A program made the translations under genes and the position numbers. A stretch of 64,000 nt of DNA from a virus. Taxonomy: Duplodnaviria > Heunggongvirae > Uroviricota > Caudoviricetes. Position 1 is the first letter of the stretch. Every line of letters begins with the position of its first letter. The stretch is from the IMG/VR virus record IMGVR_UViG_2718217807_000001, one strand, 5' to 3'. Shown one piece after another: positions 1-48,175 of this stretch. The notes below the pieces were generated by a model, which was given only the letters and a program-made list of their open reading frames with translations, did no database searches and was not told the origin of the DNA.

Positions 1-556
1 GGGGGCAGTCTCCCAAAGCATCGTAGTGACGAAAGATCGCACCTACAAAATCGGCGTGTTTGCTCGCTGTCAGTCTGGCTCCGTTGTCGATAATCAGGGC
101 AATAACAAACTGCGTATCGGCAACTCGTCTCTGCTCGTTGACTTCCAGTTTAAGCCGGCAGACCTTCCCACTGACTCGACCTGGAAGGAGATTTCCGGGA
201 CTTGGAAGGCGACGGTATCTGGCAGTGTTGGTGTCTCTATCAACTCGTCCCTAAAATCAGGTAATCAGTATTTCGATGATTTTTACTTCATCGATATCAC
301 TGACATAGTGAACATCGACGCGACGAGCAATGCGGTTGCTAGTCTGACTTCGCGAGTTACCAGTGCGGAGGGTACTGTTTCCAGTCACACCGGGAGTATC
401 ACGAATCTGAGCAATAGCCTTAATTCGTTGAATAACAAGGTTTCTGGCAAGGCCGACGCTTCGGCTCTTCAGTCACTGCAGAACACGGTTACTCAGCAAG
501 GTAAAGACTTGTCTTCTGCGAGTGGCAGTGTCACTGACCTGAAGAGTAGCCTGAAT
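1..556 (+). pseudogene. Phage tail fiber / host-specificity protein, 5' portion. The ORF enters the window from upstream with no in-frame stop before position 26. The reading frame is interrupted at 556/557 by the transposon.
   Basis: The ORF at 26-583 is open to the window edge. The protein carries a CBM-like segment (YFDDFYFIDITD) followed by Ser/Thr/Gln-rich coiled-coil repeats. Joining 556 to 6785 restores one continuous frame into the 6851-8134 ORF. Confidence 0.6.
552..556. repeat. Target-site duplication TGAAT (left copy)
   Basis: TGAAT lies immediately outside IR-L. The identical pentamer sits immediately outside IR-R at 6780-6784. Tn3-family elements make 5-bp TSDs. Confidence 0.8.
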
Positions 557-594
557 GGGGTCGTCTCAGAAAACGGAAAATAAAGCACGCTAAG
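557..594. repeat. Terminal inverted repeat IR-L, 38 bp (GGGGTCGTCTCAGAAAACGGAAAATAAAGCACGCTAAG)
   Basis: It is the exact reverse complement of 6742-6779. Confidence 0.9.
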
Positions 595-3556
595 CCGGTT
601 GCAGCGGCCGTAGCGGCCTGAACTTGCCCGCGCCGATCTTGGCGCTGCTGCGCCAGAGGTAATCGCCGGTCAGGTTGATGTGCTCCCAGCCGAGCGGCGA
701 CAGGTACTGCAACAGGCCGTCATCGACGGCTTGACCGTGGCCACGCAAGGCGTTCGCGGCCCGCTCCAGATAGACCGTGTTCCATAGCACGATGGCCGCC
801 GTCACCAGGTTGAGGCCGCTGGCCCGGTAGCGCTGCTGCTCGAAGCTGCGGTCGCGGATTTCCCCCAGGCGGTTGAAGAACACGGCGCGGGCCAGCGCGT
901 TGCGCGCCTCGCCTTTGTTCAGCCCGGCATGCACGCGGCGGCGCAGCTCGACGCTTTGCAGCCAGTCCAGGATGAACAGTGTGCGCTCGATGCGTCCCAG
1001 CTCACGCAGGGCGACGGCCAGGCCGTTCTGGCGCGGGTAGCTGCCAAGCTTCCTGAGCATCAGCGAGGCCGTCGCCGTGCCCTGCTTGATCGAGGTGGCC
1101 ATCCGCAGGATTTCATCCCAATGGGCGCGGACGTGCTTGATGTTGAGCGTGCCGCCGATCATCGGTTTCAACGCCTCGTAGGTGGCATCGCCCTTCGGGA
1201 TGTAGAGCTTGGTGTCGCCCAGGTCACGAATGCGCGGGGCGAAGCGGAAGCCCAGCAGGTGCATCAACGCGAAGACGTGGTCCGTGAACCCTGCCGTGTC
1301 GGTGTAGTGCTCCTCGATCCGCAGGTCGGATTCGTGATACAGCAGGCCGTCGAGCACGTAGGTCGAGTCGCGCACGCCGACGTTCACGACCTTGGTGTGG
1401 AACGGCGCGTACTGGTCGGAGATATGGGTGTAGAACGTCCGCCCTGGGCTGCTGCCGTATTTCGGATTGATGTGGCCGGTGCTCTCGGCCTTGCTGCCGG
1501 TGCGGAAGTTCTGGCCGTCCGACGATGACGTGGTGCCGTCGCCCCAATGCCCGGCGAAGGGATGTCGGAACTGCGCGTTGACCAGCTCGGCCAGTGCCGC
1601 CCCGTAGGTTTCGTCGCGGATGTGCCAGGCTTGCAGCCAGGCCAGCTTGGCGTAGGTCGTGCCGGGGCACGATTCCGCCATCTTGGTCAGGCCCAGGTTG
1701 ATCGCGTCGGCGAGGATCGTGGTCAGCAACAGGTTTTTGTCCTTGGCCAGGTCGCCTGACTTCAGGTGGGCGAAGTGCCGGGTGAAGCCCGTCCATTCGT
1801 CTACCTCCAGCAGCAATTCGGTGATCTTGACGTGCGGTAGGATCATCGCCGTCTGGTCGATCAGGGCCTGTGCGGTATCGGGCACCGCCGCATCGAGCGG
1901 CGTGATCTTCAGGCCCGACTCCGTGATGATGGCGTCCGGCAGCTCGTTGGCCAGCGCCATGCGGTTGACGGTGGCGAGCTGCGTTTCCAGCAGCGTCAGC
2001 CGGTCATGCAGGTACTGGTCGCAATCGGTGGCCACGGCCAGCGGCAATTCGCTGGCCTGCTTGAGGCTGGCGAATTTCGCGGGCGGCACCAGGTAGTCCT
2101 CGAAGTCCTTGAACTGGCGCGAGCCTTGCACCCAGATGTCGCCGGAGCGCAGCGCGTTCTTCAGCTCCGACAGCGCGCACAGTTCGTAGTAGCGCCGGTC
2201 GATGCCGGTGTCGGTCATCACCAGCTTCTGCCAGCGCGGCTTGATGAACTCGGTCGGCGCGTCGGTGGGCACCTTGCGGGCGTTGTCGCTGTTAATGCTG
2301 CGCAGCACCTCGATGGCGTCGAGTACGTCCTTGGCGGCGGGCGCGGCCCGCAACTTGAGCACGTCGAGAAATTCCGGCGCGTAGCGGCGCAGCGTGGCGT
2401 AGCTCTCGCCGATGCGGTGCAGGAAATCGAAGTCCTCGGGTTGCGCGAGCCGCTGCGCTTCGGTGACGCTCTCGGCGAAAGCATCCCAGGACATGACGGC
2501 CTCGATGGCGGCGAACGGATCGCGGCCCGCTTGCTTGGCCTCGATCAGCGCCTGGCCGATGCGCCCGAACAGCCGCACCTTGGCATTGATCGCCTTGCCG
2601 GATGCCTGGAACTGCTGCTGATGCTTGTTCTTGGCGGCATTGAACAGCTTGCCCAGGATGCGGTCATGCAGGTCGATGATTTCGTCGGTGACGGTGGCCA
2701 TGCCCTCGATGGCGAGCGCCACCAGGGTCGCGTAACGCCGCTGCGGCTCGAACTTCGCCAGGTCGGCGGGCGTCATCTGGCCGCCCTCGCGGGCGATCTT
2801 GAGCAGCCGGTTCTGGTGAACCAGCCGCTCGATGCCGGAGGGCAGGTCGAGCGCCTGCCACGCCTTGAGGCGTTCGATGTGTTCCAGCATGTGCCGCGAG
2901 TTCGGTTTGACCGGGGATTGCCGCAGCCAGGCCAGCCACGTCGTCTTGCCGTTGTCGCGGCGCTTGAGCAGATCGTCGAGGCGACGGCGATGCACGTCCG
3001 TCAGCGGCTCAGCCAAGGCGTCGTAGAGACGCCGGTTGGCGCGGGTAATCGCTTCGGCGCTCGCCCGCTCGACGGCGTTGAGGGCGGGCACAATGACCGA
3101 CTGCCGCCGCAGGTGCTCGATCAAGGCTCTGGCCAGCACGATGCCCTTGTCGGTTTGCATGGCCAGCTCGGTCAGCAACTGGACAGCCTGCCGGTAGTGG
3201 CCAATCGTGAACGGCTGGAAGCCGAACACCGTTTGCAGCTCGACCAGGTGCTCGCGTCGGGTCTGCTCACGCTGCCCGTACTCGTCCCAGCTTTCGATGC
3301 CGACCTTGAGCTGGTTGGCGACCAGTCTCAGCAATGGCGGGAACGGTGGCTCATCAGCGCCAAGGATGACGCCGGGAAAGCGCAGGTAGCAGAGCTGCAC
3401 CGCGAAGCCCAGCCGATTGGCCGGGCCGCGCCGCTGCCGGATGATGGAGAGGTCGCTTTCGCTGAACGTGTAGTGACGGATCAACTCATCCTTGGTGTCC
3501 GGCAACGCCAGCAGGCTTTCGCGCTCGGCGGCGGAGAGGATCGAACGGCGGGGCAT
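590..3556 (-). CDS. tnpA: Tn3-family transposase
   Basis: 988-aa ORF whose 3' end runs into IR-L. The length and position are typical of Tn3-family TnpA. Confidence 0.9.
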
Positions 3557-3708
3557 GCGGTTTCCTTCTTCTTGAAAACGTAGGTTTGTGACAAGCCCGC
3601 CAAGGCAACCGGCGCGGCACGGGAATCAAGGCATTGCGATTCTCGAAAATAGTTCTTGAAATTCTATTCTTGATTGCATATCATCTCAACGAGTTTCGAT
3701 AAGAAAGG
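3557..3708. promoter_or_regulatory. Divergent promoter region between tnpA and mntA-hepT. Contains the palindrome TTGTGACAA. Candidate operator or res-like site.
   Basis: 152-bp gap between divergent genes. Palindrome at about 3587. No resolvase subsite architecture could be verified by eye. Confidence 0.3.
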
Positions 3709-4005
3709 ATGCGCATGCGACCGTCTGTTGTGCTTGACATGAAGCGAAGCGCAGTGCGTGAAGCGGTAGGCCGCTTTCGCGCCGCGAACCCGCGCGTCTT
3801 CGGCTCGGTGCTGCATGGCACCGACCGGGATGGCAGCGACCTCGACCTGTTGGTCGATGCGCTGCCCGGTGCCACGTTGTTGGACTTGGGCGATTTGGAA
3901 GAAGAACTGAAATCGCTGCTCGGCGTTGACGTCGATCTGCTGACTCCCGGCGACCTGCCGCCGAAGTTCCGGGCCAAGGTGCTCGCGGAGGCGCAACCGA
4001 TATGA
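3709..4005 (+). CDS. mntA: Minimal nucleotidyltransferase (MNT) antitoxin
   Basis: GS-x9-DxD motif (FGSVLHGTDRDGSDLDLLV). About 98 aa. Overlaps the downstream HEPN gene by 4 nt. Confidence 0.75.
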   Translation: MRMRPSVVLDMKRSAVREAVGRFRAANPRVFGSVLHGTDRDGSDLDLLVDALPGATLLDLGDLEEELKSLLGVDVDLLTPGDLPPKFRAKVLAEAQPI

Positions 4006-4403
4006 GCGAGAACCGCCTGCCCGATTACCTCGACCACATTCAGCAGGCCGCAACCGATGCGCGCAGCTTCGTGGAAGGGATGGCCAAGGACGACTTCTTG
4101 GCCGACAAGCGCACCCAGCAGGCCGTCATCATGAGCCTGATCGTCATCGGCGAGGCGGCCACAAAGGTGATGGATGGCTACGTCGAGTTCACCCAGGCGC
4201 ATGCCGACGTGCCGTGGCGCAGCATGCGCAATATGCGTAATCGCATGGCTCACGGCTATTTCGACATCAACCTCGATGTGGTGTGGGAGACGGTACAGGA
4301 ATGGCTGCCGGCGTTGCTCCAGCAATTGCCCGCCGTGCGTCAGGATGCCGACGATGAAGACCGTAACGACAACTGTGAAAGAGGGATCTCCGATGACTGT
4401 TGA
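4002..4403 (+). CDS. hepT: HEPN-domain toxin (HepT/DUF86-like RNase)
   Basis: C-terminal RNRMAHGY motif (Rx4HxY). 133 aa. Translationally coupled to the MNT gene. Confidence 0.8.
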   Translation: MSENRLPDYLDHIQQAATDARSFVEGMAKDDFLADKRTQQAVIMSLIVIGEAATKVMDGYVEFTQAHADVPWRSMRNMRNRMAHGYFDINLDVVWETVQEWLPALLQQLPAVRQDADDEDRNDNCERGISDDC

Positions 4404-4749
4404 ATCGAGAATATTTTCTGTAGCCGAGTATGTTCAGCCGTCCGAAGGCGAGCCTATTCGTTCCGTTGTGCTTGAAACCCGAGACTCAATTATCGTGGTT
4501 TGGCATGTCCATCCCGGGCAGGAAATTGCGGCTCACATTCATCCTCACGGCCAAGACACGTGGACTGTTTTGTCGGGAATGGCTGATTACTTTCAGGGCA
4601 ATGGGATTGTTCGTGCCCTCAGGGAAGGTGAGATAGCCGTGGCAAGACCGGGCCAAGTGCACGGGGCGCGAAATACAGGTACCGAGCCATTTGTGTTAGT
4701 CTCGGTTGTGGCATCAGCCAATGCCGGTTTCGTATTGGCTGAGCGATAG
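4393..4749 (+). CDS. Cupin-domain protein
   Basis: Two His-containing cupin motifs (HVHPGQEIAAHIHPHGQDTW and PGQVHGARN). AGAGGG RBS ahead of the ATG at 4393. Confidence 0.55.
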   Translation: MTVESRIFSVAEYVQPSEGEPIRSVVLETRDSIIVVWHVHPGQEIAAHIHPHGQDTWTVLSGMADYFQGNGIVRALREGEIAVARPGQVHGARNTGTEPFVLVSVVASANAGFVLAER

Positions 4750-5003
4750 AGCCCAATCTCTGGAGTTGGTCCAATGAGCGGTCGGGGAGATAGGTAACAG
4801 ACATGCAGCGGACACGGCTGCTAAACCAGGTCGCAAACCTCCTTGCGTCGCAGCGTGCCGCAAGCGACGCGATCAATCGAATGGGGTCGGCATGAGACTG
4901 AACACCATCCAGTTCCCGACCGCGTAGCCGCCTGTCCTGCCGATCAGGTCTTGACCATCGACGCCTGGGATCAGTCCTGAATGTTCTTGGAGACCACTAC
5001 GTT

Positions 5004-5330
5004 ATGAGCCGCAGCCGCCGCAAAACACCCATCGTCGGGCACACGACCTGCGGCAGCGAGCGCGAGGACAAGAAGCTCTGGCATCAGCGCTGGCGCACCC
5101 GTGAGCGCACGGCGCTGACCAGCGCGTCGCCCGAAGCCCTGAGCGCCCATCTGCCCCTGCTGGAAAACCAGGCCAGCAGCGTCTGGTCGATGGGCAAGGA
5201 TGGCCGCTCCTACTGGCCCGTCAAGCGCCAGGCCGCCACGGCGGATCGCATCGCCAATCACAAGGGACGCAACCCGCAAGAACGCGCCTCCCTGAAAAAG
5301 CGCCTGCTGCGCAAGTGGATGAGCAAATGA
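5004..5330 (+). CDS. Hypothetical basic protein (transposon cargo)
   Basis: 108-aa ORF with high-GC codon usage. No recognisable motif. Confidence 0.35.
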   Translation: MSRSRRKTPIVGHTTCGSEREDKKLWHQRWRTRERTALTSASPEALSAHLPLLENQASSVWSMGKDGRSYWPVKRQAATADRIANHKGRNPQERASLKKRLLRKWMSK

Positions 5331-5827
5331 AGCTCTCCTTCCATCAGCACATTGCGCTGTTCTGGATGATCGGTGCTCCGGGCGTCTTCGCGCCCGTGAT
5401 CGAGAACGCCAAGCGGCCCGATGCCGGCGCCGTCATGGCGTGGGGTGTCGCGATCGTGGCGGTGATGATCCTCTTCACCCCTTTGCTGCTGCGCTGTCCA
5501 CCATTCCGGCGCTGGTATGGCCGGACGGATGCGCTGTCGGAGCGGCAGCGCCAGGCGCTTGCCGAGCGCGGCCTGCGCCGCTACTACCAGACCGCTTTCG
5601 ATGACGGCTACGTGCCCCGCGTGATGCCCTACGTGTGGCGCATCATCTGGACGGTCGGCGGGTTGATGGCTGTGACCGCCGTACTGCCTACCAACACCGG
5701 ACGGCCAGCCTTCGATGCCTTGGTGGTCTTCTCGACCTGGTATCCGATAGGCGTGATGCTGCTGGTTTTCGCGTCGAGGCCCCTTGGCCGGTTGATTCGC
5801 CAAAGAGCACAGGAGCGGCGGAAATGA
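5315..5827 (+). CDS. Hypothetical integral membrane protein (transposon cargo)
   Basis: 170 aa with three or four hydrophobic helices. The start overlaps the stop of the previous ORF. Confidence 0.45.
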   Translation: MDEQMKLSFHQHIALFWMIGAPGVFAPVIENAKRPDAGAVMAWGVAIVAVMILFTPLLLRCPPFRRWYGRTDALSERQRQALAERGLRRYYQTAFDDGYVPRVMPYVWRIIWTVGGLMAVTAVLPTNTGRPAFDALVVFSTWYPIGVMLLVFASRPLGRLIRQRAQERRK

Positions 5828-6195
5828 GCACGTCAACCATCGAGGCGCTGGCCAGCGCCTGGGCAAGGATTGCCGAGGAAGCGGAATTCCCCGCTGACTA
5901 CGAGGGGACTGCCACACCACAAGCGCATCGGGCTAGCGAAGCTATTCAGGAGCAGATTCGGGAGCGCATCGTCGCCACCAACGACATGCGGCTGTTCAGC
6001 CTGCTGCACCTGCTGGGTCAGGCGTCGCTGCGCATGGAGCAAGCGCTGTGGCCGGAGGATTACGAGCGGATGACGCGCGAGGTTGAGGAAGCCCTGCGGC
6101 AAGCCACCGACGCCAACGCCAGATCGTACACCCACGAAGAAGTGATGCAGGCGATGCAGGAACGCATCGACCGGGCGCGAGACAAGCCATGTTGA
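5824..6195 (+). CDS. Hypothetical protein (transposon cargo)
   Basis: 123-aa acidic, helical ORF. The start overlaps the upstream stop (ATGA). The end overlaps the tnpR start. Confidence 0.4.
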   Translation: MSTSTIEALASAWARIAEEAEFPADYEGTATPQAHRASEAIQEQIRERIVATNDMRLFSLLHLLGQASLRMEQALWPEDYERMTREVEEALRQATDANARSYTHEEVMQAMQERIDRARDKPC

Positions 6196-6746
6196 TTGGC
6201 TATGCGCGCGTCTCGACGCAGGATCAGAACCTGGAGCTGCAACGCGAAGCCTTGAGCAAGGCCGGATGTAAAAAGGTCTTCGAGGACAAGGTGAGTGGCA
6301 CGCGGGCAGACCGGCCTGGCTTGGCCAAGACGCTCGAAATGCTGCGCGAAGGCGATACTTTGGTCGTCTGGAAGCTCGACCGGCTGGGCCGGTCGGTCAA
6401 GCAACTGGTCGATCTGGTCGGCGATCTGCACAAGCACGGTGTCCAGTTCAGGAGCCTCACCGACTCCATCGACACCGGCACACCATCCGGGCGGTTCTTC
6501 TTCCACGTCATGGCGAGCCTTGCCGAAATGGAGCGCGAGCTGACCGTCGAGCGCACCCGCGCCGGGCTGGAAGTCGCCAAGCAGCTCGGCCGCAAAGGCG
6601 GCCGCAAGCCGAAGATGACCGACAGCAAGATCGAGTCGGCCAAGAAGCTGCTGGCCAGCGGGGTGCCGCCCAAGGACGTGGCCAAGAACCTCGGCGTGTC
6701 CATTCCGACGCTGTACCGCTGGGTGCCAGCCTCCACGCACGCTTAG
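6189..6746 (+). CDS. tnpR: Serine recombinase (resolvase)
   Basis: N-terminal GYARVSTQDQ with catalytic Ser. C-terminal HTH. 185 aa. The gene ends inside IR-R. Confidence 0.85.
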   Translation: MLIGYARVSTQDQNLELQREALSKAGCKKVFEDKVSGTRADRPGLAKTLEMLREGDTLVVWKLDRLGRSVKQLVDLVGDLHKHGVQFRSLTDSIDTGTPSGRFFFHVMASLAEMERELTVERTRAGLEVAKQLGRKGGRKPKMTDSKIESAKKLLASGVPPKDVAKNLGVSIPTLYRWVPASTHA

Positions 6747-6779
6747 CGTGCTTTATTTTCCGTTTTCTGAGACGACCCC
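6742..6779. repeat. Terminal inverted repeat IR-R, 38 bp
   Basis: Reverse complement of 557-594 with 38/38 identity. Confidence 0.9.
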
Positions 6780-6784
6780 TGAAT
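6780..6784. repeat. Target-site duplication TGAAT (right copy)
   Basis: Identical to 552-556. Confidence 0.8.
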
Positions 6785-8134
6785 ACGCTGAAGGTCCAGA
6801 GTAACCCGTGGATCGACGGTACTTTCGAAACCTATGACAACAATCAGCAGTTGGGCGGCAGCACTGCGGTTGTAACGACGGACTTCAAGAGCACCGGCAG
6901 CAAATGTCTGAAAGTTATTCGTCCGGCCAATACTGGTGGGAATGCAGACAAGACGATCGGCTCCTATTCTGCGGTGCGCCAGAGCGCGAAATATCGCGTT
7001 GAGTTTTGGGCTATGATGCCGGCAAGTGAAGCCCCGCCGTCTGGCTGGTCTGTGGCCGTTGGTCTGCACTCGATCAACAAAGATGGTGCGAACGATTGGC
7101 AGGGCATTACGTTCAACGAGTCAGGCCTTGGCGCACGCGATCAGTGGGTCAAGTTCAGTGGCGTGCTGAAGCTGGGTCCGAGCGTAACCCGTAGCCATGT
7201 ATGGGTTTCTACTCGTGGTCAGAATGGCTCCAACACACCTGGATACGCGGCGTACATTGATGATTTCGTCATTACCGATATCACTGATGCTGCGGATGCA
7301 CAGGCTACGGCGGATGCAAACGCAACGGCAATCTCATCGTTGCAGACGAAGGTCAGCGACATCGACGGAAAAGTGACAGCCCAAACGTCGCAACTGTCTT
7401 CCATGCAGTCGAAGGTTGATGGGGCAACGTCGAAGGTTGATCAGCTGTCTAAGACCATATCTGACAGCCAGAGCACACAGGCGTCTTTAAACACGAGTCT
7501 TCAGTCTCAGATCAGTGCTCAGGCGTCGGCCAACATTGCAAATCAGGCTGATCTGAATAGCACTATGACCAGTGTGGCAACCATAAAGTCGACTCAGGCC
7601 ACTCAGGCCACTCAGTTGAGTGCCGTTGCTAAGAGCCAGACCGACATGACCGCGACTCTGAATAACCAGACCGCATCTATCCAGGTACTTCAGGAAGCCG
7701 TTTCAAATAACGACTCGCTGAACAGTACCTGGATGGTGAAGATGGAAACGAACAGCGCGGGACAGAAGTATGCGGCCGGCATTGCTCTCGGTGTCGACGG
7801 CAAAAGTCTGCAAAGCCAGTTCTTAGTTCAGGCTGACAGGTTCGCTTTAATCAATACCTCGAATGGCAGCACCACGACGCCGTTTGTTATCGATAATGGC
7901 GTTACCTATATGAACGCGGCTTACATCAAAGACGGCTCTATTACCAACGCCAAGGTAGGGGATCTTCAGTCGAGCAACTACTCCAGCGGCCAGTCTGGTT
8001 GGAGGATCGGTAAAAACGGCACGATGGAGATTAACGGCACCGGGTCGGGAAGTGCCAGAACGACCATCTCCAATGGTAAGATTGAAGTTTACGATTCGAA
8101 CAACCGTCTCCGAGTGAGAATGGGTATTTTCTAA
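6785..8134 (+). pseudogene. Phage tail fiber / host-specificity protein, 3' portion. Continuation of the frame interrupted at 556.
   Basis: Carries a second CBM-like repeat (YIDDFVITDITD) and long coiled-coil S/T/Q repeats. C-terminal block: FLVQADRFALINTSNG ... NAAYIKDGSITNAKV. Confidence 0.6.
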
Positions 8135-8181
8135 AACTAAAGCCGCCCACAGGAAGTGGGCGGCATCTCAAGGAAGAGATA

Positions 8182-9726
8182 ATGAGTATGTATGAAGTAG
8201 GCACCGTAACCGGCGCCGCAAATCAGGCGAAAGTGACCGGTGTAACGACTAAGTGGTCGCAGACAGCTCTTGGTATTCAACAAGGTTCAATACTGGTTGT
8301 CTACCGCAGCGGCAATGCTGATCTTTACGCGATTAAGTCCGTAGACAGTGACACTCAGATAACGCTAACCAGAAACATCACCACCGCGTTCTCTGGCGCG
8401 TCCTATGGCATTATCACGTCAGAGACAGCCAGCACTTCAGCTTTTGCCAATCAACTCTCCAGCGCGTTCTCTCTTTGGCGTAGTGTCGTTGAGGGCTGGT
8501 CAGCGGCATTAACGGGAAGCGGGAATATAACGTTAACAGACCCCATGACCGGCAAGTCTGTCACTGTGCCAGCGATTAAAGGGATGGCCAGCATTGCCGG
8601 TGGGAATAATTTTACTGGAACACAAAGTGTGGATAGCGACGACGCCGGCTTTATTCTCGGCAAGAACGCTGATATAGGGCTGGTTAAGAAAAACGGAACA
8701 TGGGGAAAACTCATGGTCGGGAAATCTACACGATTCTCTGTTGTCAAAAGCGCTAATGACCGGATATCTGCCACGGATGTCCAGACTGAAATATTCGGTG
8801 TTAATAGCTCTGGCGATGTTGATATTTTGGGGAATATTAATGGTAAGAAAAACGCCAACTTCACGGATGGAGGTGTTAGCGCCAGAAGCATTGAGCTTTC
8901 CTATACAACACCGTTTATCGACTTCCATTATGGGAATAGCACGGCAGACTATACTCACCGAATTATTGCGGATGACCCGGTCGCATTAGGGTTCGAGTGC
9001 AGTATTCGAGTTGCCAAAAATATTCGCTCTCAGCAGGGTATCAAAGCCGATTTATATGTGCGTGCCGCTGGTCGTGCCGGCATCATAGCGCAGTACGACA
9101 ATGATCCCTCTGTGAATTTCGGGGAAATAAGGGTTGCTCCGCAATTAACCACTCAATTTGCTACGATAGGGGCGGACTCGAACGGTCAGGCAGGGGGAAA
9201 TTTTTGGTTTGAAGAGCATGTCGGAAGCAACCACCGTCTCGTTACCCAAGTCAAAGGGTATGGCGCACCCGTACAATACTGGCATCATCGCAGCGACGGA
9301 ATGATCTGGAATAGTCAGCGAGGTGATGTAGCGTGGGCCGCAACTTCAGATAAAAACCTCAAGCATGATATTAAGCCCACAGATGGCATGAAGTCGTTGA
9401 ATAATATCAATGCCATGAAACTAGTTACTTTCATCTATAACGATGACGAGAGCGGGCGCCAGCGTCGAGGTGTGATTGCTCAGCAGCTTCAGAAAATTGA
9501 CCCGTGCTACGTGAAGGTGAGTAAAGGTGTGGTAAACCACCCAGCCATAAAGGATGATGAAGGTAATGAAATTGAATCAGAACATCAGGAGATAATTGAA
9601 AAACTTGTACTGGACTCCAATCCTTTGTTGATGGACGCCTTAAGTGCTATCCAGGTATTGTCGCGGGAGATTAGCGAACTCAGAGCTGAGAACAGAGATT
9701 TACGCTCATTTGTTCATTTTGAATAG
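8182..9726 (+). CDS. Tail fiber / tailspike protein with C-terminal intramolecular chaperone (peptidase S74-like) domain
   Basis: 514 aa. C-terminal ~120 aa (NLKHDIKPTDGMKSLNNINAMKLVTFIYNDDE...GVIAQQLQKIDP) matches the autoproteolytic chaperone module of endosialidase-type fibers. AGGAAG RBS. Confidence 0.65.
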   Translation: MSMYEVGTVTGAANQAKVTGVTTKWSQTALGIQQGSILVVYRSGNADLYAIKSVDSDTQITLTRNITTAFSGASYGIITSETASTSAFANQLSSAFSLWRSVVEGWSAALTGSGNITLTDPMTGKSVTVPAIKGMASIAGGNNFTGTQSVDSDDAGFILGKNADIGLVKKNGTWGKLMVGKSTRFSVVKSANDRISATDVQTEIFGVNSSGDVDILGNINGKKNANFTDGGVSARSIELSYTTPFIDFHYGNSTADYTHRIIADDPVALGFECSIRVAKNIRSQQGIKADLYVRAAGRAGIIAQYDNDPSVNFGEIRVAPQLTTQFATIGADSNGQAGGNFWFEEHVGSNHRLVTQVKGYGAPVQYWHHRSDGMIWNSQRGDVAWAATSDKNLKHDIKPTDGMKSLNNINAMKLVTFIYNDDESGRQRRGVIAQQLQKIDPCYVKVSKGVVNHPAIKDDEGNEIESEHQEIIEKLVLDSNPLLMDALSAIQVLSREISELRAENRDLRSFVHFE

Positions 9727-9808
9727 TTAGTAAGTATTTACTTACTTTAATTCAAGAGATATGGTATAACCGGGTGGATTTAGGTTTGACAGTCATGGAG
9801 GATTAACA

Positions 9809-10123
9809 ATGTCAAACGAAACGCCCGGTGTGAGCCACAAGGAAGTGGAGCGCATCGCTCAAATTGTCGCGAGAGAAGTCCTGCAGGGGCTTCGCGATGA
9901 GGTTGGGGAAGAGGTGGATAAGCGACTGAAAGCTTACCTGGGAGACATGACCGCGACCCAGCACAGCATTCAGCATGCCAACCTGGACAAATTACTGAAC
10001 CGAATGGATGCCATTTCAAGCGGCTTTTTCGGTGGGGTAGTGTCTAAGGTCACTTCTTTCCTGATCACCGCCTTGCTGCTGGGACTGGCAGCGTATGGCG
10101 TAAAAAGCGGTATTGGAAACTAA
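9809..10123 (+). CDS. Small membrane protein, possible holin
   Basis: 104 aa. Single C-terminal TM helix. Sits immediately upstream of the lysis genes. Confidence 0.3.
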   Translation: MSNETPGVSHKEVERIAQIVAREVLQGLRDEVGEEVDKRLKAYLGDMTATQHSIQHANLDKLLNRMDAISSGFFGGVVSKVTSFLITALLLGLAAYGVKSGIGN

Positions 10124-10133
10124 GGGGAAAAGG

Positions 10134-10826
10134 ATGACTCCAAGAGGAATACGCAACAACAACCCAGGCAACCTTGATAACACGAATCCGTGGCAAGGTC
10201 TGGTTAACAACCCGGCAGAGCCTCGCTTTGCCACCTTCAAAGATCCAACGTGGGGTGTGCGTGCGCTGGCCGTCACACTCATCACCTACCACGACAAGCG
10301 GAAGGCGAAGGACGGTTCTCGCATCGACACGATCCGCGAGGTCGTTGAGCGCTGGGCGCCGCCGGTGGAGAACGACACTGAAGCGTATGTGCAAGCTGTG
10401 GCAAAAGCCGTCGGTGTCTCCCCGGATATGGAAATCGACCTGCATCAGTACGAAATTATGCGCCCGGTCGTGGAGGCGATTATTCGCCATGAAAACGGCA
10501 AAGGCCCACTGCGTACTGAGAACACCTGGTACAACCTGGATGTGATCGAAGAGGGCCTTCGTCGCGCCGGTGTTGTTAAGCAGGTGAAGATTGCGGCGTC
10601 CATCCCTGTGACGAAGGAAACTGCTGGCGCAACGATGACAGCGGGCATTGGTTTGGCGCAGCTGGCCGATGTCGCTCCACAAATCAGTACCGCTATGGAT
10701 AAGGCCCAGGGCAACATTACCAGCGGCGATACGATTCGAATCGTGTTTGGTGTGGCGACGATAGCGGTGGCGGTTTTCATTGCCATCTCCCAGGTGCGGA
10801 AATATCAGCGAGGGGTGGTGCGATGA
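10134..10826 (+). CDS. Putative endolysin-like cell-wall hydrolase with C-terminal membrane anchor
   Basis: N-terminal GIRNNNPGNL motif, recurrent in phage lysis and virion proteins. C-terminal TM helix. Located between the holin-like and spanin genes. Confidence 0.4.
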   Translation: MTPRGIRNNNPGNLDNTNPWQGLVNNPAEPRFATFKDPTWGVRALAVTLITYHDKRKAKDGSRIDTIREVVERWAPPVENDTEAYVQAVAKAVGVSPDMEIDLHQYEIMRPVVEAIIRHENGKGPLRTENTWYNLDVIEEGLRRAGVVKQVKIAASIPVTKETAGATMTAGIGLAQLADVAPQISTAMDKAQGNITSGDTIRIVFGVATIAVAVFIAISQVRKYQRGVVR

Positions 10827-11074
10827 TTGAGGGCTTAATCGCCCGATTTAAAGCGTTCGTGATGACGGCTTCGGCCGTCATTGCTGTGCTTTTCGGAGCG
10901 TATGTGTTAGGTGGTCGCTCGGCCAGGCGCTCAATGGAGATCCAGTCGCAGCAAGAAGAGAACAAGCGATTAAAGACTACCGTTGAGGTAAAGAATGAAA
11001 CGAATGATAAAGTCAGGCACATGGACGATGATGCCGTGGATAGTGAGCTTGCTGCTAACTGGATGCGTGATTAA
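10823..11074 (+). CDS. Inner-membrane spanin (Rz-like)
   Basis: 83 aa. N-terminal TM helix. Periplasmic coiled-coil with charged residues. The start overlaps the upstream stop. Confidence 0.6.
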   Translation: MIEGLIARFKAFVMTASAVIAVLFGAYVLGGRSARRSMEIQSQQEENKRLKTTVEVKNETNDKVRHMDDDAVDSELAANWMRD

Positions 11075-11228
11075 GCCACAGCAAGGGCTTTTGTTTTGCG
11101 AGACGGCCAGCCCAATCTATCTCAGCAAGGAAGACAAGTTGACCCAAGAATCAAAACGTCAAATACTGGCACATGATATCGTCGGTGAGCGCGTTTGTGG
11201 GTGGGGGCACTCCAATCGCACCAGTTAA
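10995..11228 (+). CDS. Outer-membrane spanin lipoprotein (Rz1-like), nested in the +1 frame at the 3' end of the i-spanin
   Basis: Lipobox LLLTGC after a signal peptide. 77 aa. Embedded/overlapping architecture typical of Rz/Rz1. Confidence 0.6.
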   Translation: MKRMIKSGTWTMMPWIVSLLLTGCVIKPQQGLLFCETASPIYLSKEDKLTQESKRQILAHDIVGERVCGWGHSNRTS

Positions 11229-11231
11229 TGG

Positions 11232-11264
11232 AAAACGCCCCATAATTGCTTAGGGGCGTTTTGT
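11232..11264. terminator. Bidirectional rho-independent terminator
   Basis: Hairpin AACGCCCC-N11-GGGGCGTT flanked by an A-run and a T-run. Lies between convergent genes. Confidence 0.6.
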
Positions 11265-12452
11265 CTACTCGTTGTAATATACTAGATATTGGCATTCAAC
11301 TTTTATGGCTCTTCGCAGAAAAAGAGTCGCATTGTTTACATATTCCTTTTCTGATGCATTGATGCGATTTTTCAGACCATGCACAATTGCAGAGCGTAGT
11401 TCATAAGCTTTTTTAAGTTGTTTTTTTATTTCCTCTCTATCGTCCATGCCTTTGCCGATAAGATAAGAACACCTATCAGACAATGTTTGTGTTATACCGA
11501 CACCTTGTTCCCTTTTGTCGCCTAACAATGCTTCTAGGCCCATGCATATTTGAATGAATGACATGGTTTCATCCATAACCATCTGCGAGTTCATATACCA
11601 ATCCATTGCGGATTTTATATACATGGCTGATTCAGAACTATCACTTATCAATGAATTGATAAATGATAATTTTTCTATTGAAAGGTGTTTTTTATTTTCA
11701 TTGATCTTTAGGTCGTCTAGGAAATTAGATATTTGCAACGGCAGTACGTAATCTTCAGTTATTTGATCGTGGCTTTTGTTTTTTATTTTTGCTGTCAGTA
11801 TTGGAATGCTCTTGGTCCTTCCAGGAAGGGTTTCTTCAAAGCGATACTTATGTATTAATAGTTTGCTCTTGGTTGTGAATATTCTGTTGGTCATGAAAAC
11901 GTATAAAAAAACATTAAAGTCTTGTAGATATGGCTTAATCTCATGCGTGTTGTTTTTATGTGTTAGATACCCACTTCCGGATAATCTTAAATATCTATTT
12001 GTTATTAGATTAAATGGGGATTCATCATGGCCAAGACCAATTCCTAGATCCAATACTTCAATTTTATTAGGGTCGCCATTAAATGTTGGGATGTCTAGGT
12101 TGTGTAGCGGGATTGCGACTTTGTATTCGTGTGGCAATGCTGTAAAGTAACCGAAAAGATAATCGATTAATTCAAGCTTTTCATCTTTGGTTAATTTAAT
12201 GTTGTCATCTAATAATGGAGTAAATAAATTTCTTTTTAAACTAAATGATGTTACAGCATCAAAGAATGCCCAAATTGCTGTTTGTTCATCAATAGGTGGA
12301 GGGGTTTTATTATTTGGCTTTAATTTGTCAGTGAGAGTTTTAAATTTCTTTTGGGTTCCTTCTCTAAACGGTGTTCCATTGACTTTTACCACGACTTCGT
12401 CGACCAAGTCAGAAAAAATAATTTTGATGCTTTTGACCTGCTCAGGGTGCAT
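11265..12452 (-). CDS. HEPN-domain protein, Abi-like. AT-rich moron.
   Basis: 395 aa. C-terminal ELRSAIVHG (Rx4H) within a predicted helical ~110-aa domain. GC far below the backbone. Opposite strand to its neighbours. Confidence 0.5.
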   Translation of the reverse strand: MHPEQVKSIKIIFSDLVDEVVVKVNGTPFREGTQKKFKTLTDKLKPNNKTPPPIDEQTAIWAFFDAVTSFSLKRNLFTPLLDDNIKLTKDEKLELIDYLFGYFTALPHEYKVAIPLHNLDIPTFNGDPNKIEVLDLGIGLGHDESPFNLITNRYLRLSGSGYLTHKNNTHEIKPYLQDFNVFLYVFMTNRIFTTKSKLLIHKYRFEETLPGRTKSIPILTAKIKNKSHDQITEDYVLPLQISNFLDDLKINENKKHLSIEKLSFINSLISDSSESAMYIKSAMDWYMNSQMVMDETMSFIQICMGLEALLGDKREQGVGITQTLSDRCSYLIGKGMDDREEIKKQLKKAYELRSAIVHGLKNRINASEKEYVNNATLFLRRAIKVECQYLVYYNE

Positions 12453-12600
12453 TTGTTCGGCCTCGGAATTTTCAATTATTTGTGTAGATTATAACTTTTG
12501 TATTGAGTTCAGTCATTGACCTTTTTCGGTAGTCGGCATAACATTACACACATAAGAAAACATCTTGTTTTCAAAACTAAAGACGGTACAAGGCGAAACA

Positions 12601-13266
12601 ATGGATACCAGACTCATCATAGTTGGTGGGACGAAGGGCGGACCGGGTAAGTCCACCATCGCCCAGCAGGTAGCAGCCTGTTTGCAGCTCAAAAAGAAGA
12701 AGAAGGTTCACGTCACCGATATCGACATCCAGCGTACTACGACAACCTGGTGTGAGGATCGTCGCGGCAACAAGAAACTCGAACTGCTCCCTTTTGCCTT
12801 CGTCGGCAACGAAATAATCAAACACCTTCAATCGCTCAACGGTCGTTATGAATACATCGTAGTTGACGCCGGCGGTTTCGATTCTGAAATACAGCGTGAG
12901 GCCATGCTGATAGCTGACGCCATACTGATACCTCTTCGGCCTAAACGCAGGGACCTGAAGTCCTTGCGCGACATCGACCCGGTCCTTGAGAGCGTTAAAG
13001 CCGAGAACCCAGAGGTTCAGATCCGCGTAGTGATGAACCAATGTCCATCGCTTCCATCCCAGGTGTCTCGCATACTCGCATCAAAAGAAATTATCGAGTC
13101 GTTTGGTATCGAGCCAGTGCCAGTTAACATCTACAACCGAAATATCTACGACGATGCGGAAGAGGCTGGTCGCTCTGTTTTTGAAATGAAAGGCAAAGAA
13201 CGAGACAAGAAAGCTGAAGACGAAATTGAAGAGTTAGTTGATTATCTTATTAGTTTAGAGGGTTAG
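12601..13266 (+). CDS. parA: ParA-family partition ATPase (type Ib)
   Basis: Deviant Walker A GGTKGGPGKST. 221 aa. Confidence 0.8.
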   Translation: MDTRLIIVGGTKGGPGKSTIAQQVAACLQLKKKKKVHVTDIDIQRTTTTWCEDRRGNKKLELLPFAFVGNEIIKHLQSLNGRYEYIVVDAGGFDSEIQREAMLIADAILIPLRPKRRDLKSLRDIDPVLESVKAENPEVQIRVVMNQCPSLPSQVSRILASKEIIESFGIEPVPVNIYNRNIYDDAEEAGRSVFEMKGKERDKKAEDEIEELVDYLISLEG

Positions 13267-21042: not shown

Positions 21043-21294
21043 ATGACCGACTACATAGTTGCCATCATCTCGCTGGTCTGCATCTTCTACACCGTCACGA
21101 AGATTGTTGGGTATAGCATCGATGTCTTTGTTGCGAAGTTCGTTGCCACTGATGCGAAGCTGGAGAAAACGGTATCGAGCTTGATCAGCTTAACTGCGCT
21201 GCGCTGGGGCAGCATTGAAGATAATAGAAATTATACTGTAAAAACAAATGGTTACGTTATCATTGTTAAAAAAAATACGGATAAGGATAAATAA
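21043..21294 (+). CDS. Hypothetical small membrane protein
   Basis: 83 aa with an N-terminal hydrophobic helix. Confidence 0.35.
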   Translation: MTDYIVAIISLVCIFYTVTKIVGYSIDVFVAKFVATDAKLEKTVSSLISLTALRWGSIEDNRNYTVKTNGYVIIVKKNTDKDK

Positions 21295-21994
21295 GCGTTT
21301 ACTTATCTATAAGAAATCAATAAGATTAACTCGTTTTCGACGTTAAGCGACTTTGCGGCCTTTAAGAAACTGACCATAAAAGTAAATGCAAACGACAATG
21401 TAGTTCTGATGGCGGCTTAACAGCCTATAAATCAGTGAGGTCTTCCGATTCCTCATTATCAAATTCGGCGCACTGATCCGGTGTGATTACGAATGGATAG
21501 CAGAGACTTACTGGTGAACCGGCGATACTGACCCACTAGCCCGTAACCATCGATAGAGTCAGACGGTGAGTCTCTGCGCACGTTTTAGCTGTTTGGGTGG
21601 TTAGACACATTCCACCAACCATGTCCCGGTTTCAGTTCGTGACTGACCGCCCAAACAGCTGCGTCGTGTGTGATTACTTTATGTCTCATTTCAACTTGGG
21701 TTAATTTGAAATTGCGACGCAGCGCCTTTCTCAAAGTTGAGCAGAGGACTTTGAGAAAGTGCGTGCTTACGATCGGACTTTCTTCTGCCATTGACAGTCT
21801 TCTTCAACGACTTGATATGTTGACCATAAGCCCAGCCGGAGGTGGCGTGATAACACCGGCAGATTGAGATGTTTGTCTAAGGAAAGAGGTTTCATACATG
21901 GGAGCCTCCGATCTCACCTCCAGACCATCAGACATGCCTCCGCTGTTTGATGACAGGCTCAATCCGTTTCCTCTTTACGATAAAAGAGGTGCAA

Positions 21995-22076
21995 GCGAAC
22001 AAAGCAGTTAGGTTACTGCGACCGAGGAAGGCGCCTGAGTCGGTAGAGAGTGGTTCGAGTCCACTTGTTCGCGCCA
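21995..22076 (+). ncRNA. tRNA-like element (acceptor stem, D-arm, GGTTCGAGTCC T-arm, CCA end). Non-canonical oversized anticodon region.
   Basis: A 7-bp acceptor GCGAACA/TGTTCGC, D-stem GCAG/CTGC, T-stem AGTGG/CCACT with loop TTCGAGT and a 3' GCCA can all be drawn. The region between the D and T arms is 28 nt, so no standard anticodon arm fits. Confidence 0.3.
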
Positions 22077-22161
22077 ATCTAAAGGGCTTTTGCGAGAGTC
22101 TTTCAGATTGGCCCGGGAGCAGAGAAGACGCCTTAGCGCAAAGGACGGTCTTTGGGAGGTT

Positions 22162-22241
22162 GCCCTTAGTTTGCTCGCAGCTGGTGGAGACGCGTTGAAG
22201 CCAGCTGTTAATCATAGGTTCGAATCCTGTGACGGGCGCCA
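22162..22241 (+). ncRNA. Second tRNA-like element (GGTTCGAATCC T-loop + CCA), non-canonical
   Basis: T-arm ATAGG-TTCGAAT-CCTGT followed by 7 nt + GCCA. A 7-bp stem CAGCTGG/CCAGCTG encloses a 16-nt loop. The acceptor pairing is imperfect. Confidence 0.25.
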
Positions 22242-22441
22242 AATCTAAGACGATGTGATTCCATACATCTCTTAGTGTCGAGGCCAAAATGGTGCGGCCA
22301 TCAACCGCATAAACAGCCATTATGCCCGAGCCACAAGCCTCGTCTGGCACTAACGTAAAGTGCAAGTAGCGTGAAATTCAGGTAGTGCGACCAGAAAAGT
22401 AACGCTGCGAACCATACAAATAAACTACAAAGAGAAAACAC

Positions 22442-46099: not shown

Positions 46100-46443
46100 C
46101 TGTAAATAAACTCGTTGCCGCTGGTCTGGCGTTATTTTCCTCATACGCATTTAGTAGCGAGGAAGCGGTCATGAAGTGCCAGATGAGCATTTTAAAGTTC
46201 AAAGACGGTCAGATGATTGGCGAGCCTCACCAAGTGGCGGAAGCCATACTGACAGCCGATAGCCAACAATTTTACGCGGTTATCGGGGAGAGAGTGATCA
46301 ACTCACCGGTCTTATTTGAGCATAAAGGCGACATGGCCGGATACCATGCTGGCGCCGCATATTTCATAAGAAAAGCCAGCTACGGCGTTATGTATGATGA
46401 CTTTGGGTATGTGTTTGACGAATGTGTAAAGGTGACGGCATGA
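46096..46443 (+). CDS. Secreted hypothetical protein
   Basis: TTG start. Signal peptide (AFS|SEE). 115 aa. Confidence 0.4.
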   Translation: MTVNKLVAAGLALFSSYAFSSEEAVMKCQMSILKFKDGQMIGEPHQVAEAILTADSQQFYAVIGERVINSPVLFEHKGDMAGYHAGAAYFIRKASYGVMYDDFGYVFDECVKVTA

Positions 46444-46652
46444 ACTTAGCAAATAGCATGGAAATGGAAAAGAGCCGAGGCTACTGGCGCTCGAAGGGCT
46501 TCACTCGTCCGGCTGATTATTCTGTCCGTCTTGACCGCGATGATTGTCGAGTTGTCTACAGATACAACTCATGGCAGATGATCGAGAACGGGGAAACCAA
46601 GCCGAGGCATAAGTCAAAAAGTCTTTATACTCTGCTGTCATCATTCACCTAA
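46440..46652 (+). CDS. Hypothetical small protein
   Basis: 70 aa. Start overlaps the upstream stop (ATGA). Confidence 0.35.
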   Translation: MNLANSMEMEKSRGYWRSKGFTRPADYSVRLDRDDCRVVYRYNSWQMIENGETKPRHKSKSLYTLLSSFT

Positions 46653-46925
46653 TTACCGCTCATAGCATACTTGCCTTGTAGCACCGCTGCCAGCATATAC
46701 AGATGCCGCTGGCAGCATATCAAATACCGCTCACAGCATATGTTCAAAGAAAACTACCGCTGACAACATACGTTTACTCCGGTAACAGACAAAAGCCCCC
46801 TCCCCTCTTCACCCATAAAACTATTTCGAGTACCGCTGGCAGCATACAAACAGCCGCTGACAGCATACTAATAAGCCTATTTGCCGCTGACAGCATACTC
46901 AATACCGCTGACAACATATCAAACA
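46650..46925. repeat. Iteron array (~9 copies of CCGCTGACAGCATA-like 14-16-mers), incA-like, downstream of repA
   Basis: Copies start at about 46655, 46683, 46707, 46729, 46757, 46833, 46855, 46886 and 46905. Confidence 0.75.
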
Positions 46926-48043
46926 AGCTTCAGGCTGTTGCTAAGGATCTCAATAAGCCTAATATTCTCGGGGGTCAGGTCCTTGGAAAGCTCAGCTATC
47001 TTATTGATAAGATTCTGCTTAGTGTCCGAATTACCTTCCACTGGAGGCTTCTCTTTAGGTGGTTCATCAGGCTTGCCACCAGTGACTTTCAGCTTCGGAT
47101 TTCGGTTATGAATTTGGATATAGACAGACCGGCCACGCTTGATCTCGCTGTAGTCGAGATACCCAAGTTCCTGGAGAGACTTGAGGCCATTTCGGATCGT
47201 CTGATTTTGGGAGCTAACGTTGTTCGAACTCAGATTGAGTCTGGCTCTTAGCCTCGCTAGGGAGATGGGGGCCGGCTTTGTTGGGAGACTTTCGATGAAC
47301 GTATACAGCGCCTGGGCCGTCTCCTTACGCGGGAGTTTGTTTATGACCTTCAGTTGCAGGAGCACCTTATGGTCGAACCTATACAGCTCTGACAGCTTAG
47401 GCTCGGCCTGAAAAATGATGGTGTCTTTCTTCTCGTTGTAATCAACGCTGTTTATGAGGTGCATCATCAGGAGCGAGATCTTATTCGAGCCGTCGACGTT
47501 CTTCTCTTCATACGTGCGCTGGAAGGAAAGCGTCGTCCGCATTATTTTCAGAAGGCTATTTGTGAGCCTGTCACGTAATGTTTTGCGGATTTGCGATGAA
47601 GGATAGCCGCAGAATTTTGCAAACTTCGTAATGCTCAACTCCACGCGCCCACTGGCCTCGCCGTATTCAGCTAAAGAACGAACCACCCCAACCCATGTTT
47701 TGAAGTCGTGATCCATGTCCAGTCTGGGGCCGGTGATTTTGATGTCGGCATAACCTTCGGAACGAGCGACTTCCAGCTGAACCAGCTCTTTCGAGGCGTC
47801 TATCTCATTCGACTTGTTTCGTTTACTATTCCTTGTGCCTTTTAGTGTCGGGACAAATAAACCAAGTCGCATTAACGCGATAGGTTGAACTGTGTTGTTG
47901 CTATTGGGGGTCAGATCGCCTGTATAAAGTTTGAGAGAGCCTTCATCAAGGTCATCTGGCTCTGTGGATGAGTCCACATCAAAGATCTCATTTTCTGAAT
48001 CTTCAGCTATGTTTTTTCTGCCTTTTTTCTTGGCTGTGGACAT
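46919..48043 (-). CDS. repA: Plasmid replication initiator (RepA, iteron-binding)
   Basis: 374-aa ORF bracketed by iteron arrays, which is the layout of iteron-controlled plasmid replicons. Confidence 0.6.
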   Translation of the reverse strand: MSTAKKKGRKNIAEDSENEIFDVDSSTEPDDLDEGSLKLYTGDLTPNSNNTVQPIALMRLGLFVPTLKGTRNSKRNKSNEIDASKELVQLEVARSEGYADIKITGPRLDMDHDFKTWVGVVRSLAEYGEASGRVELSITKFAKFCGYPSSQIRKTLRDRLTNSLLKIMRTTLSFQRTYEEKNVDGSNKISLLMMHLINSVDYNEKKDTIIFQAEPKLSELYRFDHKVLLQLKVINKLPRKETAQALYTFIESLPTKPAPISLARLRARLNLSSNNVSSQNQTIRNGLKSLQELGYLDYSEIKRGRSVYIQIHNRNPKLKVTGGKPDEPPKEKPPVEGNSDTKQNLINKIAELSKDLTPENIRLIEILSNSLKLV

Positions 48044-48062: not shown

Positions 48063-48175
48063 TACCGCTGACAGCATACACGGCTTACCGCTGACAGCAT
48101 GTGTTTTACTGGTGACAGCATACAGTAAACCGCTAGCAGCATATAGTAAACCGTCGACAGCATACGAGAACATGC
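48063..48175. repeat. Iteron array (5 copies at ~22-bp spacing), incC/origin-like, upstream of repA
   Basis: ACCGCTGACAGCATAC, TACCGCTGACAGCATG, CTGGTGACAGCATAC, CCGCTAGCAGCATAT, CCGTCGACAGCATAC. Confidence 0.75.

Follow-up and report, generated by a model that had tools for sequence, protein, structure and literature searches.

Insertion of an ISPa38-type Tn3-family transposon into a gpJ-like tail gene of a Klebsiella oxytoca phage-plasmid

Phage-plasmids and the transposons they carry

Transposons, integrons, and insertion sequences have been documented in SSU5-type phage-plasmids (PMC9600943, Pfeifer et al. 2022; bioRxiv 10.1101/2025.09.12.675607), and mobile-element insertions in replicons of this type are also described in PMC12466754. 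The insertions reported for the SSU5 type carry resistance genes and avoid the genes for capsid, portal, tail, and fibre (bioRxiv 10.1101/2025.09.12.675607). The locus considered here lies in a stretch of viral DNA of 64,000 nucleotides (IMG/VR record IMGVR_UViG_2718217807_000001), referred to in its full length as the window, in which a 6,223-bp Tn3-family transposon interrupts a phage tail gene. It resembles the reported cases in its kind—a Tn3-like unit transposon in a ~110-kb phage-plasmid of a clinical enterobacterium—but differs from them in that the element contains no resistance gene and breaks a tail gene, whereas the reported insertions bring resistance genes to sites outside the structural genes. 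The present insertion is a mild exception to the avoidance of structural genes and is consistent with youth, as a counter-example of this sort is expected of a very young insertion that selection has not yet removed. In kind, the finding is already known: the transposon has been described, it is very common, and no new biology is involved. The public annotation of the record already names the transposase and lists the two fragments of the tail gene as separate genes.

The closest described relative of the transposon, ISPa38/TnPa38, measures 6,455 bp, has 39-bp inverted repeats (IRs), and contains eight genes; "ISPa38-like" copies in Klebsiella plasmids (e.g., pKPN_CZ) show 96% coverage and 99% identity and are flanked by 5-bp duplications (PMC12466754). 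A similar arrangement of genes is found in TnSod9, an element of the Tn21 subgroup on a Shewanella oneidensis megaplasmid and the only member of the Tn3 family for which the survey of Lima-Mendez et al. 2020 lists a HEPN/MNT pair (PMC7157771). Transposons of the Tn402/Tn5053 family, in turn, insert into the res regions of carriers of the Tn21/Tn501 type (PMC7765201).

The insertion and its empty-site sibling

The window derives from plasmid pCAV1335-118 of Klebsiella oxytoca CAV1335 (NZ_CP011616.1, 117,623 bp, circular); window position 1 is found at 53,911 of this record, and the final 287 nt continue past its end into its beginning. It can be stated with high confidence that the 6,223-bp unit transposon entered an SSU5-type phage-plasmid, in a K. 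oxytoca lineage from a hospital, through ordinary replicative transposition and, as part of the same explanation and with the same confidence, that the insertion arose after the lineages of CAV1335 and its sibling isolate CAV1099 had split. The assignment to the SSU5 type is based on the genes for terminase, portal, capsid, tape measure, L, K, I, J, and fibre, which occur together with genes for RepB, ParB, DnaB, and primase; with SSU5 itself, the replicon shares little nucleotide similarity (77% over 5% of the query). The backbone is matched by 262 PLSDB records, and those among the matches listed are mostly ~108–116 kb long and non-mobilizable. By the insertion, the plasmid has grown by 6.2 kb (5.6%) to become the longest record among the backbone matches listed.

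The ends of the element are those of a Tn3-family transposon. The sequence at 557–594 is the exact reverse complement of 6742–6779 at 38 of 38 positions (GGGGTCGTCTCAGAAAACGGAAAATAAAGCACGCTAAG, beginning with GGGG and ending with TAAG), in agreement with the IR length of ~38 bp in this family, and complementarity extends for one further base (39 nt, 557–595/6741–6779). According to our own estimate, the chance expectation of a perfect 38-mer IR in 64 kb is ~1e-14. The element is directly flanked by a 5-bp target site duplication (TSD), TGAAT, at 552–556 and 6780–6784, again as in the Tn3 family. When positions 1–556 are joined to 6785 onward, a single open frame results that runs from window position 2 to the stop codon at 8132–8134, with DLKSSLN fused in frame to TLKVQSNPW at the junction. 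The repeats, the duplication, and the in-frame fusion had all been proposed in a first-pass annotation made from the letters alone, and each was reproduced by self-alignment of the ends and translation of the joined sequence. The view taken there that the transposon is intact is borne out, beyond the perfect IRs and the TSD, by a full-length transposase of 988 aa, a serine resolvase, and an unbroken spacer between tnpA and the neighboring mntA gene. The element also has the higher GC content that had been claimed for it (63.2% vs 48.1% in the remaining window, a gap of 15 points).

A relative with the uninterrupted gene, which the first-pass annotation had proposed to look for, exists in the same hospital: plasmid pCAV1099-111 (NZ_CP011594.1, 111,395 bp) of K. 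oxytoca CAV1099. It is shorter than pCAV1335-118 by 6,228 bp, i.e., by the 6,223 bp of the element plus 5 bp, and has TGAAT as a single copy at its empty site (49386–49390). After removal of the element and one TGAAT, 57,772 of the 57,772 remaining bases of the window are identical to pCAV1099-111; for the whole reconstructed replicon, the same holds for 111,395 of 111,395 positions, leaving the insertion as the sole difference. A third 111,395-bp plasmid, from isolate CAV1015, matches at 100% over a flank of 19.2 kb. CAV1099 was isolated in April 2009 and CAV1335 in December 2010, and the two isolates share the same 113,105-bp KPC plasmid with 0 single-nucleotide variants (PMC4879409). In the genome-release paper, both appear only in a table of blaKPC plasmids, and the word "phage" is absent (PMC4879409). 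Because of the isolation dates of CAV1099 and CAV1335 and the identity over the full replicon, the filled site is regarded as derived and recent and as the only change in the replicon; by the isolate dates, the event is at most ~20 months old. CAV1099 and CAV1335 constitute a natural isogenic pair whose phage-plasmids differ only by the insertion, and this pair bears both on the need for the distal part of the J-like protein in SSU5-type infectivity and on the effect of the transposon-borne toxin–antitoxin pair on plasmid stability.

The features that delimit the insertion are as follows.

552–556, no strand: left copy of the TSD, TGAAT, which occurs once only at the empty site of pCAV1099-111
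557–594, no strand: 38-bp IR at the tnpA end, holding the tnpA stop codon
6742–6779, no strand: 38-bp IR at the tnpR end, with a terminator-like hairpin at 6737–6751
6780–6784, no strand: right copy of the TSD, with the sequence TGAAT

The transposon, its relatives, and its likely donor

Between its ends, the element contains the following genes and spacer.

590–3556, minus strand: tnpA, Tn3-family DDE transposase, 988 aa (Pfam DDE_Tnp_Tn3 3e-158, DUF4158 2e-56)
3557–3714, no strand: spacer between tnpA and mntA, candidate res site, 158 bp, 46% GC
3715–4005, plus strand: mntA-like gene for a minimal nucleotidyltransferase, putative antitoxin, 96 aa (Pfam NTP_transf_2, 37 bits, cutoff 21)
4002–4403, plus strand: hepT-like gene for a HEPN RNase, putative toxin, 133 aa (Pfam HepT-like, 93.6 bits; Rx4H motif RNRMAH)
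4393–4749, plus strand: cupin passenger gene, 118 aa (Pfam Cupin_2; PGAP annotation)
5004–5330, 5327–5827, and 5824–6195, plus strand: three overlapping passenger genes with no assigned function, translationally coupled to tnpR
6189–6746, plus strand: tnpR, serine resolvase, 185 aa (Pfam Resolvase 7e-49, HTH_7)

TnpA reaches 1311 bits against the NCBIfam equivalog transpos_Tn3 (cutoff 500) and covers positions 2–954 of its 954. The stop codons of tnpA and tnpR each lie inside an IR, and the passenger genes, all on the plus strand, are tightly packed. By family-level membership, mntA and hepT are predicted to form a HepT/MntA toxin–antitoxin pair: the HEPN/MNT pair passes the gathering cutoffs of Pfam and misses the equivalog cutoffs of NCBIfam (36–37 bits vs 60). 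The MntA-like protein, for example, scores 36 bits against MntA_antitoxin, under the cutoff of 60, and has a PADLOC match to the candidate system PDC-S09. The two genes overlap by 4 nt, and the motifs GS...DLD and RNRMAH are seen in the translations. For the three passenger genes at 5004–6195, searches of Pfam, NCBIfam, and PADLOC returned no match.

The element represents the enterobacterial form of ISPa38/TnPa38, which is shorter by 232 bp, and its transposase carries the PGAP name "Tn3-like element ISPa38 family". The two forms agree in gene content (tnpA, six passenger genes, and tnpR), in their IRs of 38/39 bp, and in their 5-bp duplications; they differ by the 232 bp, a comparison made with 6,455-bp contigs and the published description. 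Stand-alone contigs of 6,455 bp from environmental Betaproteobacteria (L019, L062) are 99.9% identical to the element in two blocks separated by a 232-bp gap. The missing segment, at ~4371/4372, removes the hepT–cupin spacer and alters only the last few HepT codons, such that the C-terminus reads ...NDKGMEP in the 6,455-bp form and ...NDNCERGISDDC in the deleted one. Copies with the deletion were observed mostly in Enterobacterales, the 6,455-bp form being common in environmental Betaproteobacteria and Pseudomonas. Matches that cover 80% or more of the element are present in at least 276 plasmid records of PLSDB, and copies in many Enterobacterales plasmids are 100% identical to it. No copy of the element was found in the INPHARED phage collection, which yielded only related tnpA genes, mostly in phage records of the P1/SJ46 type. 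The same passenger segment was detected in 74 DNA stretches of representative genomes, mostly of environmental Beta- and Gammaproteobacteria. Together with the high GC content, this host range fits a non-enterobacterial origin. The earlier suggestion that the element was acquired from a different lineage is upheld in this respect, though its immediate source was most likely a co-resident plasmid, as discussed below.

With respect to family, the ends of the element are of the Tn21 type. Over the IR and tnpA, nucleotide identity to other transposons of the Tn21 subgroup (e.g., TnAs3) amounts to 83–93%, and the homology breaks off exactly at the start codon of tnpA. IS4321 and IS5075 reportedly target the ends of Tn21-family transposons, as the title of a 2003 article by Partridge and Hall has it (listed among the references of PMC11187229). 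The ends described here are recognized in the same manner, since IS4321 lies 21 nt inside the IR of a co-resident copy and the same break recurs in many database copies; many PLSDB copies match only from element position 22, or only up to 6202. The 38-bp GGGG...TAAG ends targeted by IS4321 and the role as carrier for Tn402/Tn5053 res hunters are features shared with Tn21, Tn501, and TnAs3. The gene layout, however, is not that of Tn21 and Tn501, in which tnpR immediately precedes a co-directional tnpA and is itself preceded by res: here, tnpA (590–3556, minus strand) and tnpR (6189–6746, plus strand) occupy opposite ends and diverge, with the passenger genes between them. In the arrangement of its genes, the element corresponds to TnSod9, where tnpA likewise diverges from an antitoxin–toxin...tnpR series (PMC7157771), but a cupin gene and three further genes are placed between toxin and tnpR in the present case. 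Two other candidates for its identity were rejected, namely Tn6603 (7,315 bp, co-directional tnpR/tnpA, different cargo) and Tn1403/Tn1013, whose cargo orfA–D encodes an anion transporter, UspA, DnaK, and a DNA-binding protein.

As far as can be judged from sequence identity, the element was most likely donated by an IncFIB plasmid of the same strain, on which an identical copy is found. In CAV1099, the IncFIB plasmid pCAV1099-114 (NZ_CP011596.1) contains a 6,223-bp copy without any difference in sequence and with TACCT on both sides. Its counterpart in CAV1335, pCAV1335-115 (NZ_CP011617.1), has the same copy at the same site plus a 1,327-bp IS4321 at 46273–47599. This IS4321 is located 21 nt inside the tnpA-side IR, is absent from the equivalent CAV1099 plasmid, and accounts for the difference in size between the IncFIB plasmids of CAV1335 and CAV1099 (115,319 vs 113,992 bp). 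In CAV1015, an identical copy with TTATC flanks is present in the 11.6-kb mobilisable plasmid pCAV1015-12 (NZ_CP017933.1, 2647–8869). Because identical copies occupy distinct sites, each with its own 5-bp duplication, the element has moved at least twice in this lineage with the donor copy kept, which constitutes indirect evidence for the outcome expected of replicative transposition. What speaks against the IncFIB copy as donor is that the copy in pCAV1335-115 now carries IS4321 inside one IR; among the CAV1335 copies examined, only that of the phage-plasmid has both ends intact. Presumably, the jump into the phage-plasmid preceded the insertion of IS4321 or came from another copy, the copies examined being those on plasmids. 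It was also observed that the copy in pCAV1015-12 has mbeB and mbeD of the mobilisation region as its neighbors, which provides the element with a mobilisable vehicle.

From the known Tn3-family pathway, the following steps would be expected. Acting on the two 38-bp IRs, TnpA would link them to the target, cut at TGAAT with a 5-bp stagger. As the element is replicated, a cointegrate of donor and target would then arise, the donor in this scheme being the identical copy on the co-resident IncFIB plasmid. Finally, TnpR would resolve the cointegrate at a res site in the tnpA–mntA spacer, leaving one copy per replicon.

Such a res site is very probably present, and located within 3557–3714, given that insertions of res hunters cluster at 3610–3614 and given the composition and repeats of the spacer. 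At 46% GC in a 63% GC element, the spacer contains divergent promoter-like hexamers and TTCTYGAAA repeats. More than half of the copies from other species that have the spacer anchor (27 of 50) are broken at window position 3610–3614. Nearly all of these breaks abut a 25-bp end of the Tn402/Tn5053 type (TGTCRYTTTCAGAAG...), which occurs in several sequence variants, and copies with both sides available show a 5-bp overlap of the flanks; in the window copy, the spacer is unbroken. A point to be set against this placement is that a search for subsites by repeats in 3557–3714 found only TTCTYGAAA-like repeats and weak dyads; the evidence for res is indirect. The gap at 4750–5003 was rejected as an alternative location, as it is devoid of promoter-like sites and repeats and as res hunters are concentrated in the tnpA–mntA spacer instead. 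Class 1 integron ends were also seen among the interruptions at 3610–3614. To judge from these copies, elements of the ISPa38 type look like a frequent carrier platform for res-hunter elements.

The interrupted gene, the readings of its loss, and the rest of the replicon

In pCAV1099-111, the intact gene is a single coding sequence (CDS) of 12,426 nt and 4,141 aa (316–12741 of the extracted locus L002). It is preceded by the tape measure gene and by M-, L-, K- (C40 peptidase), and I-like genes. Residues 28–869 of the product align with lambda J (8iyk_J residues 3–836, E=1e-121). The middle of the protein contains fn3, three CBM_4_9 stretches, and coiled-coil segments, and matches to C-termini of J-like proteins (9l9p_S, 2e-30; lambda J residues 848–960, central straight fibre) are found in its final 449 residues. 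Pfam assigns FNIII-A_GpJ, Phage-tail_3, and Phage_Tail_Tip, the latter to residues 3992–4121. On account of the gene order, the Pfam matches, and the PDB matches to lambda J, the interrupted gene is identified as that of a lambda-gpJ-like tip attachment/central fibre protein rather than a side fibre. The claim of a clean insertion into a tail-fiber gene accordingly holds with respect to its cleanness, the sibling with the empty site being otherwise identical, and is amended with respect to the gene. The protein resembles lambda J in the position of its gene after the tape measure, M, L, K, and I genes, in the homologous ~840 N-terminal residues, and in the C-terminal central-fibre domain, yet it is ~3.7 times as long (4,141 vs 1,132 aa), with ~2,800 extra CBM_4_9/coiled-coil residues between hub and fibre. 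The protein is composed of repeated modules in which a CBM_4_9-like domain precedes a coiled coil, as can be seen from YFDDFYFIDITD and YIDDFVITDITD, encoded at window positions 268–303 and 7252–7287. In the window, the gene and its neighbor appear as follows.

2–556, plus strand: 3′ part of the truncated gpJ-like gene, to codon 3692; reads 8 codons into the transposon, stop codon at 581–583
6785–8134, plus strand: severed 3′ end of the gpJ-like gene, codons 3693–4141; last CBM-like module, coiled coil, and central straight fibre/Phage_Tail_Tip
8182–9726, plus strand: intact side tail-fibre gene outside the transposon, 514 aa (Pfam Peptidase_S74, C-terminal endosialidase-chaperone domain)

The cut after residue 3692 hits a coiled coil that links repeated CBM modules and leaves 89% of the protein. 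The truncated product comprises 3,700 aa, including eight transposon-encoded codons (GVVSENGK), and ends with ...SSLNGVVSENGK. In the downstream piece, PGAP annotates an open reading frame (ORF) of 427 aa from a TTG at 6851. The second fiber gene, at 8182–9726, was described correctly in the first-pass annotation. Phage-plasmids of the K. pneumoniae relatives have equally large J regions in which the C-terminal part is conserved (~82% nucleotide identity). The J region of one of them, pVH1-2-1 (NZ_CP027801.1, 1104–13974), is annotated as two CDSs of 1,824 and 2,476 aa with a 35-nt overlap; as this may reflect a frameshift or sequencing error, it was set aside as evidence for a natural split.

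The truncated J, as predicted from the position of the cut, keeps its N-terminal hub and most CBM/coiled-coil modules but no longer has the last module, the central straight fibre, or the tail-tip domain. Tail assembly may still proceed, since the hub-forming part of J is intact. In lambda, the distal region of J carries receptor binding. Virions of pCAV1335-118, if still made, would probably be devoid of a functional distal tip and adsorb poorly or not at all. A loss of infectivity is plausible on the same grounds, and the replicon would persist as a plasmid. Polarity on the downstream side fibre and later genes is possible, the longer genome may strain packaging, and the gained MntA/HepT module may help plasmid retention. 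Several points count against a loss of J function. The side fibre is intact, the 427-aa C-terminal fragment of J might be made separately, and the consequences for the phage, including the infectivity of particles of even the uninterrupted plasmid, are a matter of pure inference.

It is conceivable, if rather unlikely, that the insertion is tolerated, either because the truncated J still builds a working tip or because the intact side fibre does the host recognition; as part of the same proposal, the phage-plasmid would still be infective, perhaps with an altered host range, and could ferry the transposon in its virions. The portion of J that is kept, which includes the whole lambda-J-like hub region, the location of the cut in a linker, and the integrity of the side fibre are consistent with this possibility, as is the operon from mntA to tnpR, which is co-directional with the downstream genes and could allow some read-out. 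However, the lost segment is the part conserved with J-like C-termini, the central straight fibre of lambda included, and it is retained at ~82% nucleotide identity in the K. pneumoniae relatives. The avoidance of structural genes by insertions in SSU5-type phage-plasmids implies counter-selection (bioRxiv 10.1101/2025.09.12.675607), the genome has been extended beyond all other records listed, and the right IR contains a terminator-like hairpin.

A further proposal holds that the insertion is a first step from phage-plasmid to plain plasmid, a single transposition having removed the receptor-binding end of the tip and installed a HepT/MntA addiction module; this appears unlikely. It is more doubtful still that the insertion marks a domestication in which the phage function is being abandoned in favor of maintenance by the toxin–antitoxin module. 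Such a course is suggested by the combination of a broken structural gene and a gained MntA/HepT pair, and transitions from phage-plasmids to plasmids have been discussed in the literature (bioRxiv 10.1101/2025.09.12.675607). The first-pass annotation had likewise raised the question of whether the insertion marks domestication toward a pure plasmid. Beyond the insertion itself, this view found no support: there are zero other differences over 111,395 bp, the remaining phage genes of pCAV1335-118 are all annotated as intact, the event dates back no more than ~20 months according to the isolates, and a single insertion is indistinguishable from a neutral or mildly harmful accident. If a first step of domestication were nevertheless true, selection would act on plasmid maintenance only, and CAV1099 and CAV1335 would represent a before-and-after pair in a hospital lineage.

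Two remaining explanations dispute the insertion as such, which is taken here to be a genuine and recent transposition. That a transposon copy of another replicon was misplaced in the phage-plasmid contig during assembly is very improbable. Assemblers can be misled by repeats, and pCAV1335-115 provides an identical copy in the same strain, but the record is a closed circle of exactly 111,395 + 6,223 + 5 bp, and the perfect 5-bp duplication, of a sequence that is single at the empty site, would not result from a misjoin. The reverse order of events, with an ancestral filled state and precise excision from pCAV1099-111 and the CAV1015 plasmid, is the least credible of all, as nothing specific favors it, whereas the earlier isolate has an empty site, the site is unoccupied in two independent isolates, and the match to related Klebsiella phage-plasmids runs on without a break from the point of insertion. 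In addition, transposition in the Tn3 family is replicative, and precise excision does not occur at useful rates.

Two further observations concern the rest of the replicon. Tandem repeats of 21 bp occur at 46683–46741, 46884–46922, and 48114–48165, on both sides of the gene for a RepB-family initiator (~46919–48043, minus strand), and probably serve as iterons in the origin from which the plasmid replicates. No tRNA and no Rfam family above threshold was detected in the window. A sub-threshold match to the Rfam family RF04321 (tmRNA_permuted; 33.3 bits vs a gathering cutoff of 47, E ~5e-5) lies at 21250–21420 on the plus strand, inside an ORF-poor gap (21295–22441), where ARAGORN reported no tmRNA. 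Within this region, GCAAACGACAATGTAGTTCTGATGGCGGCTTAA encodes ANDNVVLMAA*, which is similar to a tmRNA tag peptide, and ~150 nt (21344–21496) are 83–85% identical to unannotated DNA of unrelated virulent Salmonella, Shigella, and Klebsiella phages. The region at 21250–21420 might possibly represent a tmRNA-like element of the phage-plasmid.

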